NCBI RefSeq assembly: GCF_002854065.1
Contig: NZ_CP024147.1
From: Escherichia coli
GTDB taxonomy: Bacteria; Pseudomonadota; Gammaproteobacteria; Enterobacterales; Enterobacteriaceae
Reading direction: 5' to 3' (one strand)
DNA: 64,000 nucleotides
Position numbers and translations under genes: made by a program. The notes under the pieces were generated by a model. That model saw nothing but the letters and a program-made list of their open reading frames with translations. It did not search any database and was not told the DNA's origin. This document shows positions 32,007-41,673 of the stretch, one piece after another (within the stretch, counting starts at the first letter, position 1; every line of letters begins with the position of its first letter).

Positions 32007-32390
<384 letters not shown>

Positions 32391-36504: not shown

Positions 36505-38007
36505 ATGCTGAAAAGGAAAAAAGTAAAACCGATTACCCTTCGTGATGTCACCATTATTGATGACGGTAAACTGCGTAAAGCCATTACCGCAGCATCACTG
36601 GGTAATGCAATGGAATGGTTTGATTTTGGTGTTTATGGTTTTGTTGCTTACGCATTAGGTAAAGTTTTTTTCCCGGGGGCTGACCCCAGCGTGCAGATGG
36701 TTGCTGCACTTGCCACTTTCTCCGTTCCCTTTCTGATTCGACCGCTTGGCGGACTCTTCTTTGGTATGTTGGGCGATAAATATGGTCGCCAGAAGATCCT
36801 CGCTATCACTATTGTGATTATGTCGATCAGTACGTTCTGTATTGGCTTAATACCGTCCTACGACACGATTGGTATTTGGGCACCGATTCTGCTGTTGATC
36901 TGTAAGATGGCACAAGGTTTCTCGGTCGGCGGTGAATATACCGGGGCGTCAATATTTGTTGCGGAATACTCCCCTGACCGTAAACGTGGCTTTATGGGCA
37001 GCTGGCTGGACTTCGGTTCTATTGCCGGGTTTGTGCTGGGAGCTGGCGTAGTGGTGTTAATTTCGACCATTGTCGGCGAAGAGAACTTCCTCGACTGGGG
37101 CTGGCGTATTCCGTTCTTTATTGCTCTGCCGTTAGGGATTATCGGGCTTTACCTGCGCCATGCGCTGGAAGAAACTCCGGCGTTCCAGCAGCATGTTGAT
37201 AAACTGGAACAGGGCGACCGCGAAGGTTTGCAGGATGGCCCGAAAGTCTCGTTTAAAGAGATTGCCACTAAATACTGGCGCAGCCTGTTGACATGTATTG
37301 GTCTGGTAATTGCCACCAACGTGACTTACTACATGTTACTGACCTATATGCCGAGTTATTTGTCGCATAACCTGCATTACTCCGAAGACCACGGGGTGCT
37401 GATTATTATCGCCATTATGATCGGTATGCTGTTTGTCCAGCCGGTGATGGGCTTGCTGAGTGACCGTTTTGGCCGTCGTCCGTTTGTGCTACTTGGTAGT
37501 GTTGCACTGTTTGTGTTGGCGATCCCGGCGTTTATTCTGATTAACAGTAACGTCATCGGCCTGATTTTTGCCGGGTTACTGATGCTGGCGGTGATCCTTA
37601 ACTGCTTTACGGGCGTTATGGCTTCTACCTTGCCAGCGATGTTCCCGACGCATATCCGTTACAGCGCGCTGGCGGCGGCATTTAATATTTCGGTGCTGGT
37701 TGCCGGTCTGACGCCAACACTGGCGGCCTGGCTGGTCGAAAGCTCGCAGAATCTGATGATGCCAGCCTATTACCTGATGGTAGTGGCGGTGGTTGGTTTA
37801 ATCACCGGCGTAACCATGAAAGAGACGGCAAATCGTCCGTTAAAAGGTGCAACACCGGCGGCGTCAGATATACAGGAAGCGAAGGAAATTCTCGTCGAGC
37901 ATTACGATAATATCGAGCAGAAAATCGATGATATTGACCACGAGATTGCCGATTTGCAGGCGAAACGTACCCGCCTGGTGCAGCAACATCCGCGAATTGA
38001 TGAATAA
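36505..38007 (+). CDS. proP: Proline/glycine betaine:H+ symporter, osmosensing MFS transporter (500 aa from MLKRKK)
   Basis: MFS motifs and C-terminal coiled-coil (IDDIDHEIADLQAKRTRLVQQ). Confidence 0.9.
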   Translation: MLKRKKVKPITLRDVTIIDDGKLRKAITAASLGNAMEWFDFGVYGFVAYALGKVFFPGADPSVQMVAALATFSVPFLIRPLGGLFFGMLGDKYGRQKILAITIVIMSISTFCIGLIPSYDTIGIWAPILLLICKMAQGFSVGGEYTGASIFVAEYSPDRKRGFMGSWLDFGSIAGFVLGAGVVVLISTIVGEENFLDWGWRIPFFIALPLGIIGLYLRHALEETPAFQQHVDKLEQGDREGLQDGPKVSFKEIATKYWRSLLTCIGLVIATNVTYYMLLTYMPSYLSHNLHYSEDHGVLIIIAIMIGMLFVQPVMGLLSDRFGRRPFVLLGSVALFVLAIPAFILINSNVIGLIFAGLLMLAVILNCFTGVMASTLPAMFPTHIRYSALAAAFNISVLVAGLTPTLAAWLVESSQNLMMPAYYLMVVAVVGLITGVTMKETANRPLKGATPAASDIQEAKEILVEHYDNIEQKIDDIDHEIADLQAKRTRLVQQHPRIDE

Positions 38008-38060
38008 GCTGAAACAGATGGCCTGATGTGACGCTGTCTTATCAGACCAACAATTGAACT

Positions 38061-38077
38061 CTTAAGGTTCACTTAAT
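38061..38077 (+). promoter_or_regulatory. PmrA (BasR) box upstream of pmrR
   Basis: CTTAAG-gttca-CTTAAT, two hexamers separated by 5 bp, about 45 nt upstream of the pmrR ATG. Confidence 0.6.
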
Positions 38078-38121
38078 CTCTGACGCGCATACTCTCCTCC
38101 AGGTTAACGGAGGAGAGTGCA

Positions 38122-38211
38122 ATGAAAAACCGTGTTTATGAAAGTTTAACTACCGTGTTCAGCGTGCTGGTGGTCAGCAGCTTTCTTTATATCTGGTTTG
38201 CCACGTACTGA
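38122..38211 (+). CDS. pmrR: 29-aa membrane peptide (PmrR-like)
   Basis: ATG with GGAGGAG RBS; encodes MKNRVYESLTTVFSVLVVSSFLYIWFATY; below the ORF-track length cut-off; 3' end overlaps the convergent basS stop. Confidence 0.6.
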   Translation: MKNRVYESLTTVFSVLVVSSFLYIWFATY

Positions 38212-39278
38212 TCTTTCTTCAGCCGTATCCAGGCGCGCGTGCCAGAAGTCTCTTGCTGGTTTTGCAGGAAAAACTGCCCGTGATGCAACTGTGTAATGCG
38301 GCTGACAATACTTAACCCCAGACCAATCCCGCCATAACGGCTGTCCATTCGTACAAACGCTTTACTCAACTCCCCGCATTTACTCTCATCAATACCCGGT
38401 CCTTCATCTTCAACGGCCATGACCGCTCCGTCATCTTCTTGCAGCTTAATCATAATGTTGCTGCCTTGCGGGCTGTAACGATGGGCGTTTTCTACCAGAT
38501 TTCGCAATAACATCCGCAGCAGGGTTGCATCACCCTGAACGGTGATGTCGGCGGTGCTCTCTGGCAATAGCAGGGTTTGCTGTCGCTGGTCGAGCATGGT
38601 ACTGAGTTCGTCATACGAGGGGAGAATGACATCTTCCAGCAGTTTTACATGTTGATAATTACCGGAAGAAAATGACTGTCCGGCACGCGCCAGTTGCAGC
38701 AGCTGGGAGACGCTCTCCATCATCTGATCAAGCCGTGCCACTAACGGTGCTACATCAATGTGATGCGTTTTCGCCAGCAGTTCCAGATGCAAACGTACCC
38801 CCGCCAGTGGCGTTCGCAGTTCGTGCGCGACGTCAGCGGTAAACAACCTTTCGTTATCCAGCGTGCTGGTCAGGCGACTGACCAGATCGTTTAACGCCGA
38901 AACCACCGCTTCGATTTCGAGGGTGGCGCTGTGAATGGCAATGGGCGTTAAGTTGTCGGCGGTGCGCGCTTCCAGCTCTTTTTGCAGCTCCGCCAGCGGG
39001 CGGGTGATGCGGCGTACCGCCTGATAGCAGATAAATAGCGTCAGGCTGACCATAAAGACGCCGGGGACAATCAGGCTGGCGACCGCCTCGCGGATCTCAC
39101 GCATGATGTGGCGATCGTTGTTGCGATTGTCGCGTAGCGCCTGCTCAAACAGCTGAATCTGCTCGGTACTTTCATGCCATAGCCAGAAGACGCTGATCAG
39201 CTCAAACACCAACAAAATGGCCCCGATGGTCAATATCAGCCGTTGGCGCAGCGATATTGGTCGGCGCAGAAAACGCAT
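38187..39278 (-). CDS. basS: Sensor histidine kinase of the BasS/BasR (PmrB/PmrA) system
   Basis: 363 aa from the internal Met; H-box VAHELRTPL, ATP-lid EDEGPGI...GGIGLGLSIV; start at 39287 is also possible. Confidence 0.88.
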   Translation of the reverse strand: MRFLRRPISLRQRLILTIGAILLVFELISVFWLWHESTEQIQLFEQALRDNRNNDRHIMREIREAVASLIVPGVFMVSLTLFICYQAVRRITRPLAELQKELEARTADNLTPIAIHSATLEIEAVVSALNDLVSRLTSTLDNERLFTADVAHELRTPLAGVRLHLELLAKTHHIDVAPLVARLDQMMESVSQLLQLARAGQSFSSGNYQHVKLLEDVILPSYDELSTMLDQRQQTLLLPESTADITVQGDATLLRMLLRNLVENAHRYSPQGSNIMIKLQEDDGAVMAVEDEGPGIDESKCGELSKAFVRMDSRYGGIGLGLSIVSRITQLHHGQFFLQNQQETSGTRAWIRLKKDQYVANQI

Positions 39279-39287
39279 CAGATTCAA

Positions 39288-41642: not shown

Positions 41643-41673
41643 ATTAAGCCAACCTTAAGTTCTTAAGGTTGGC
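41643..41673 (-). promoter_or_regulatory. PmrA box of eptA embedded in a perfect palindrome that also forms the adiC terminator stem
   Basis: Minus strand CTTAAG-gttgg-CTTAAT; same DNA is ccaaccttaag-tt-cttaaggttgg (41649-41672), followed on the minus strand by TTAATTTTGCTTTG. Confidence 0.6.

Follow-up and report, generated by a model that had tools for sequence, protein, structure and literature searches.

The region between proP and the convergent sensor kinase gene basS (pmrB) of Escherichia coli raises two questions: what is made from a 29-codon open reading frame (ORF) that lies behind a PmrA (BasR) box, and does its transcription, which would run antisense into basS, bear on basS expression? 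We analyzed the locus within a 64-kb window, this being the whole stretch of DNA studied; coordinates below are window positions, obtained from K-12 coordinates by subtracting 4,293,994. Taken as a whole, the locus is almost certainly E. coli pmrR, with a BasR-activated promoter and an LpxT-inhibiting peptide as its product. The identification of the ORF as pmrR, coding for a PmrA-activated membrane peptide that inhibits LpxT, is fully supported and is already established knowledge, as is the role of PmrR, and in itself it adds no new biology. The one under-described feature of the locus is a hairpin in which promoter, Shine-Dalgarno sequence, and a published 3′ end are nested.

Identity and conservation of the 29-codon ORF

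The initial annotation had noted a PmrA box, a strong ribosome-binding site, a 29-aa hydrophobic ORF, and an overlap of about 25 nt with basS, and all four are present at the locus (Table 1). Its further claim, that the peptide is PmrR as in Salmonella, is borne out by the RefSeq annotation, by a match to a curated protein family, and by E. coli genetics (PMC8129183). The suggested comparison with annotated pmrR gave the same answer: RefSeq names the ORF pmrR, its K-12 MG1655 counterpart is b4703 ('small regulatory membrane protein PmrR', 4332116–4332205), and an indel-free alignment shows the window and K-12 to be identical from the box through the ORF. The 29-aa product, MKNRVYESLTTVFSVLVVSSFLYIWFATY, matches the NCBIfam equivalog NF033224 'PmrR' over residues 1–29 of 29 with 74.2 bits (cutoff 30, E = 5e-21), and the mean Kyte-Doolittle hydropathy of its residues 9–27 is +1.94. 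More broadly, the segment 37950–38350 has 100% DNA identity to two E. coli strains and was found in 5408 of 5426 complete genomes, the annotated features under these matches being proP, pmrR ('LpxT activity modulator PmrR'), and pmrB. The gene order around the locus is crfC, rdcB, proP, and pmrR on one strand, and pmrB/basS, basR, eptA, and adiC on the opposite strand.

The start of basS differs between records. In a strain whose sequence at this point equals that of the window, PGAP begins the gene with the TTG at 39287, directly against the basR stop, for a product of 366 aa; K-12 basS, with 363 aa, starts 9 nt further in (39279–39287, − strand).

Table 1. Features of the pmrR locus and endpoints of the pmrB plasmids of Xu et al. 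2021, in window coordinates.
Feature	Position	Strand	Basis or remark
PmrA/BasR box, direct repeat CTTAAG-GTTCA-CTTAAT, in place of a -35 element	38061–38077	+	Exact consensus match
Inferred -10 hexamer CATACT (CAnACT in the alignment), 10 nt after the box	38088–38093	+	Conservation
Hairpin: ACTCTCCTCC (38091–38100), 8-nt loop, GGAGGAGAGT (38109–38118)	38091–38118	+	Folding and conservation
Shine-Dalgarno of pmrR, GGAGGAGAG	38110–38118	+	Read from the sequence; GGAGG core 7 nt before the ATG at 38122
pmrR coding sequence	38122–38211	+	29 aa and stop; small membrane peptide inhibiting LpxT
pmrR/basS coding overlap, convergent	38187–38211	both	Exactly 25 nt; described in PMC8129183 and PMC8004244
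pmrR 3′ UTR, antisense to the basS coding sequence	38212–38311	+	Published 3′ end
basS (pmrB), sensor kinase gene convergent with pmrR	38187–39287	−	ORF and annotation
Second PmrA/BasR box CTTAAGGTTGGCTTAAT, promoter of the eptA-basR-basS operon	41643–41659	−	Exact match, 47 nt upstream of the annotated eptA start
DS86 endpoint	first base 38100		Without -10, without box, hairpin broken; colistin MIC 0.5 µg/mL
DS103 endpoint	first base 38083		-10 and hairpin kept, box gone; colistin MIC 4 µg/mL
DS126 endpoint	first base 38061, the first base of the PmrA box		Everything kept; colistin MIC 16 µg/mL

For a view of conservation that is blind to pmrR, we fetched basS loci of other species using only the C-terminal half of BasS as the query. 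The search returned 23 Escherichia and Citrobacter loci together with four unrelated distant kinases (L025–L028), which were left out; Salmonella was absent from the result, and the consensus of the Rfam family STnc630 served as its proxy. All 23 loci carry both the 29-codon ORF and a PmrA box that begins 60–61 nt ahead of the ATG, and in every one of them the ORF is flanked by proP and by the 3′ end of pmrB/basS, with which it converges and overlaps. The initial annotation had singled out conservation of the small ORF in related genomes as a point on which its reading would stand or fall, and the ORF is retained throughout these loci. Variable columns of the ORF are dominated by third codon positions (10, 4, and 17 of 21 at positions 1, 2, and 3), and in its part outside the basS overlap dN/dS between the two genera is 0.18; judged from these substitutions, purifying selection acts on the encoded protein.

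A chance coincidence of an ORF and a box in the proP–basS intergenic region has the small size of the ORF in its favor, and nothing else. Set against it are the retention of ORF, box, and spacing in 23 species, the coding pattern of substitutions with its low dN/dS, the match to a curated family, and the published translation and genetics (PMC8129183, PMC11429745), and we reject this explanation as virtually impossible.

The PmrA-activated promoter and its peptide product

Matches to YTTAAK-N5-YTTAAK are rare, with two exact occurrences in the 64-kb window where 0.09 are expected, and none of 100 shuffles reached two; allowing one mismatch gave no additional convincing sites in the window. The box at pmrR lies 10 nt upstream of the conserved CAnACT, and a hexamer 10 nt after the box is the known geometry for activators of the PhoB/OmpR family. 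An alignment of 24 Escherichia and Citrobacter sequences sets these elements apart from their surroundings: all 20 columns upstream of the box (38041–38060) and nine of 10 in the spacer between box and hexamer (38078–38087) vary, compared with four of 17 in the box and two of six in the hexamer, whose second-position A and sixth-position T never change. A generic sigma-70 scan over 37900–38400 called no promoter, a silence that is expected, and uninformative, because the promoter is activator-dependent and has no -35 element. From the position of the hexamer we infer that pmrR transcription starts at about 38099–38102; the literature searched, with Kato et al. 2012 outside its reach, contained no mapped 5′ end of pmrR. 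The second exact match lies at eptA, the classic target of PmrA, and is promoter P1 in PMC8129183; there the box is followed by GAGCAT at the same 10-nt spacing as CATACT at pmrR.

Published work in E. coli assigns a function to both the promoter and the peptide. A PmrA-dependent pmrR promoter and a pmrR 3′ end overlapping pmrB have been described (PMC8129183), and in a PmrA-constitutive E. coli, deletion of this PmrA box alone leads to polymyxin B sensitivity and restores deoxycholate resistance; the polymyxin phenotype is reversed by deletion of lpxT and complemented by ectopic pmrR (PMC8129183). Ribo-RET places initiating-ribosome reads at the pmrR start codon, with a 5-fold increase under low Mg2+, PmrR-6xHis is recovered in the membrane fraction, and the low-Mg2+ growth defect of a pmrR deletion is complemented by a wild-type plasmid copy and not by one in which the ATG is changed to TAA (PMC11429745). 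In the same study, a single-copy reporter bearing the sequence immediately upstream of pmrR was not significantly induced in E. coli at low Mg2+, and the effects on low-Mg2+ growth of deleting or overexpressing pmrR were independent of lpxT (PMC11429745); because of this independence, LpxT may not be the sole target of PmrR. E. coli B adapted to iron(III) shows increased pmrR along with eptA, arn, and basR (PMC13405929), an observation that is supportive only, as the strandedness of the RNA-seq is not stated and the rise could in part reflect reads from the basS 3′ UTR. PmrR is also placed in the same pathway in PMC7790251, where PmrR and LpxT are both dispensable for colistin resistance induced by a peptide, an artificial route. 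Biochemical evidence of LpxT inhibition is credited to work on the Salmonella enterica peptide (Kato et al. 2012 Mol Cell, as cited in PMC8129183 and PMC8004244).

Every feature of the PmrR family that could be assessed at this locus is found in the ORF, and LpxT inhibition itself rests on the literature. The likeness to PmrR of Salmonella enterica extends to a 29-aa hydrophobic peptide, a promoter with a PmrA box, a position between proP and the pmrB 3′ end, and inhibition of LpxT. There is no difference in gene identity; the lpxT-independent growth phenotypes are reported for E. coli, and the 25-nt coding overlap is a feature of Escherichia.

We propose the following course of events. Fe3+ or mild acid would be sensed by BasS (PmrB), or PhoPQ together with PmrD would act indirectly, to yield phosphorylated BasR (PmrA), which would bind the direct repeat in the place of a -35 element and activate a sigma-70 promoter with CATACT as its putative -10. 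Transcription would then proceed from about 38100 through the ORF, to end about 100 nt beyond it, antisense within basS, at the published 3′ end. The product would be a peptide that spans the inner membrane once and inhibits LpxT, which adds a second phosphate at position 1 of lipid A, and the position left free would be available for phosphoethanolamine addition by EptA. EptA modification would lower the negative charge of the surface, raising polymyxin resistance and lowering deoxycholate resistance; in Salmonella, it would also reduce Fe3+ binding, so feeding back on PmrB. PmrR is relevant to polymyxin and colistin resistance and to bile tolerance because it determines which group is added at position 1 of lipid A, phosphate (by LpxT) or phosphoethanolamine (by EptA).

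In its network logic, PmrR resembles other regulators of the PhoPQ/PmrAB network, such as MgrB (which inhibits PhoQ), MgtS (which protects MgtA), and PmrD (which connects PhoP to PmrA). What is shared is a peptide of <50 aa that the system induces, that has a membrane enzyme as its post-translational target, and that completes a feedback loop. PmrR differs from them in that its target, LpxT, is a lipid A modifying enzyme rather than a sensor kinase or transporter, and the resemblance is one of logic only, with no sequence similarity.

STnc630, the antisense overlap, and basS mRNA

The same DNA is also represented in Rfam, where it matches RF02052 ('Enterobacterial sRNA STnc630') at 38053–38218 on the + strand, over the full length of the model (1–166) and with 181.8 bits against a gathering threshold of 55. 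The STnc630 consensus contains the PmrA box, the hairpin with the Shine-Dalgarno sequence, and an intact 29-codon ORF. Although the family is filed as a non-coding sRNA, the ORF in its consensus is under selection and is translated (PMC11429745), and we conclude that STnc630 is in effect the pmrR gene with its promoter, not a separate RNA gene; it could be re-curated accordingly as pmrR plus promoter. The name 'STnc630' appears in none of the literature searched.

The coding overlap between pmrR and basS varies among the loci. It is 25 nt, as in the window, in all six of the fetched Escherichia loci, compared with 7 nt in 15 Citrobacter loci and 4 nt in two. The longer overlap arose because a TAA-to-TAC change extended Escherichia BasS by six residues: Citrobacter BasS has its TAA stop where Escherichia reads TAC. 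The resulting C-terminal extension in Escherichia reads YVANQI (38187–38207, − strand), and Citrobacter BasS ends in ...KDQ.

At the RNA level the overlap is longer. The primary pmrR 3′ terminus in Supplementary Data 4 of the TRS paper (PMC10687069) is at K-12 4332305, corresponding to 38311, and a pmrR RNA reaching this published end would cover about 125 nt of basS in antisense, coding overlap included. The TRS supplements list no 3′ termini for basS, basR, or eptA. In E. coli, ExcludonFinder lists pmrR-basS as a convergent excludon (PMC12288877).

Xu et al. 2021 (PMC8004244) reported that this region affects pmrB: plasmid-borne pmrB of BL21 needs 103 bp or more of downstream DNA to confer colistin resistance, and shortening this DNA from 126 to 86 bp lowers pmrB mRNA about 315-fold, the half-lives being 0.83 and 1.0 min, respectively. 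We located the endpoints of these constructs on the window from the published primer sequences (Table 1), and they fall, to the exact base, on the pmrR -10 and hairpin and on the PmrA box. This offers a concrete reinterpretation of Xu et al. 2021, the connection not being explicit in that paper. The region downstream of pmrB has a real cis effect on the level of pmrB mRNA and leaves its half-life unchanged.

These observations bring up the alternative that the main product of the locus is a regulatory RNA (STnc630), a cis-antisense or excludon partner that controls basS mRNA, with the ORF secondary. The strength of the Rfam match, the long antisense reach that the published 3′ end gives pmrR RNA, and the excludon listing are all in line with it, as is the roughly 315-fold change in pmrB mRNA across truncations that remove the -10 and box (DS86), the box only (DS103), or nothing of the pmrR promoter (DS126). 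Yet selection at the locus acts on the protein, an ATG-to-TAA copy on a plasmid does not complement (PMC11429745), and the half-life of pmrB mRNA does not change between DS86 and DS126 (PMC8004244); moreover, pmrR and basR rise together (PMC13405929), the coding overlap in Citrobacter is just 4–7 nt, and the Rfam model takes in the promoter box and therefore does not delimit a mapped RNA. On balance we think it improbable that a regulatory RNA is the main product, and we retain the reading of the locus as a peptide gene.

The initial annotation had further suggested that the antisense overlap couples pmrR transcription to the stability of basS mRNA. In that form the suggestion lacks support, because in the only direct test found, trimming the downstream DNA from 126 to 86 bp left the pmrB half-life unchanged (PMC8004244). 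Also against coupling are the restriction of the 25-nt coding overlap to Escherichia, the co-induction, as opposed to mutually exclusive expression, of pmrR and basR (PMC13405929), and the finding that presence of the pmrR promoter goes with more pmrB mRNA rather than less (PMC8004244). Some RNA-level coupling of pmrR and basS may nonetheless exist, since the region affects the pmrB mRNA level and the pair is listed as an excludon.

The excludon label itself is only partly apt. As in convergent excludons and at bidirectional terminators, the pmrR and basS transcripts would overlap, given the published pmrR 3′ end, and one palindromic hairpin lies between the convergent proP and basS units. Unlike excludons, pmrR and basS are activated by the same regulator and are reported to rise together, which is the opposite of exclusive expression; unlike bidirectional terminators, the pmrR hairpin has no U-tracts, and the half-life of pmrB mRNA is unaffected.

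A hairpin nesting a putative -10, the Shine-Dalgarno, and a published 3′ end

The hairpin between the box and the ORF folds with -19.9 kcal/mol (z = -3.8), and none of 200 shuffles fold as well; it also belongs to the consensus structure of STnc630. Its 3′ arm is the pmrR Shine-Dalgarno, which is invariant in the 24 sequences, and its 5′ arm overlaps the putative -10 and the expected transcription start. In the 24-sequence alignment, none of the 10 columns of the 3′ arm vary, compared with two of 10 in the 5′ arm and all eight in the loop, and both changes in the 5′ arm are C to T, so that G.U pairs are kept in the + strand RNA.

A published + strand 3′ terminus lies immediately beyond the stem. 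It spans K-12 4332112–4332120 with its peak at 4332117, corresponding to 38123, which is 4–5 nt after the stem, and the TRS paper reports from SEnd-seq that the upstream gene terminates inside the pmrR coding sequence (PMC10687069). That upstream neighbor is proP in all 23 loci, its stop codon sometimes lying about 10 nt from the box; with proP upstream in every locus, there are 0 of 23 in which adjacency to proP can be separated from conservation of the hairpin.

We considered and rejected an intrinsic (Rho-independent) terminator at the hairpin. The bases following the stem are UGCAAUG on the + strand and UAUGCGCG on the − strand, and because a U-tract is absent after the stem on both strands, the hairpin is not a canonical intrinsic terminator; the terminator scan makes no call there.

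The hairpin could still serve solely to terminate the convergent proP and eptA-basRS transcripts or to stabilize their 3′ ends, in which case it would coincide with the pmrR -10 and Shine-Dalgarno only incidentally and have no share in the control of PmrR synthesis. The position of the + strand 3′ terminus within the start of pmrR (PMC10687069), the constant presence of proP upstream, and the lower pmrB mRNA when the stem is broken in DS86 (PMC8004244) are all compatible with such a limited role. It sits less well with the absence of U-tracts and of a terminator call, and with the fact that the 3′ arm is the sole Shine-Dalgarno of an ORF known to be translated (PMC11429745). In addition, the C-to-T changes would give A.C mismatches in the − strand RNA, a weak pointer from two events, and a − strand 3′ terminus for basS is not reported in the TRS data set. 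We regard a role confined to termination or 3′-end stabilization as rather unlikely.

Predicted accessibility of the ribosome-binding site depends on where the RNA begins. For RNA starting at or before 38091, opening the site costs 18–21 kcal/mol, compared with 1.7–5.5 kcal/mol for nascent RNA starting at 38100–38102. The predicted fold of the full-length transcript pairs the Shine-Dalgarno with a pyrimidine stretch, TCTTTCTTC (38212–38222, + strand), at an opening cost of about 13 kcal/mol; this stretch directly follows the pmrR stop and is basS coding sequence on the other strand. Because the full-length fold pairs the Shine-Dalgarno with distal sequence, we limit the claim of a free Shine-Dalgarno to nascent RNA. 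From these folds we infer that proP-derived RNA would either end at the pmrR ATG or have a locked ribosome site, and that RNA started at about 38100, which is without the 5′ arm, would be translatable. The hairpin marks the mapped 3′ end of proP mRNA, and PmrA-started RNA would be free of the arm that masks its Shine-Dalgarno.

We tentatively put forward a wider role, which we hold as a speculative possibility and not as the expected outcome: the hairpin may exert three-way control, forming the 3′ end of proP mRNA, masking the Shine-Dalgarno of RNA started upstream, and hiding the -10 and start within its 5′ arm, and the same palindrome, or convergent transcription of pmrR, may set the level of basS mRNA in cis. 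If three-way control were true, transcripts initiated by BasR/PmrA would be the only ones to evade both termination and masking, and PmrR synthesis would depend strictly on promoter choice. If the cis effect on basS operates in this manner, it would explain the need for 103–126 bp downstream of pmrB in colistin resistance (Xu et al. 2021), since the truncation endpoints coincide with the pmrR -10 and the PmrA box.

Other structured elements occur nearby. The sole terminator-like call of the terminator scan is a weak 6-bp stem, TGCTGGTGGTCAGCA followed by GCTTTCTTTA, at 38165–38179 (+ strand), which lies within the pmrR ORF, 30 nt before its stop, and is included in the Rfam consensus structure. 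Between the proP stop and the PmrA box there is a REP element (38021–38048, + strand) that is present in Escherichia and absent from the Citrobacter loci. The window as a whole has 18 REP-like matches against 0.25 expected, and a REP/BIME array with a 100-nt period is found at 32025–32382.
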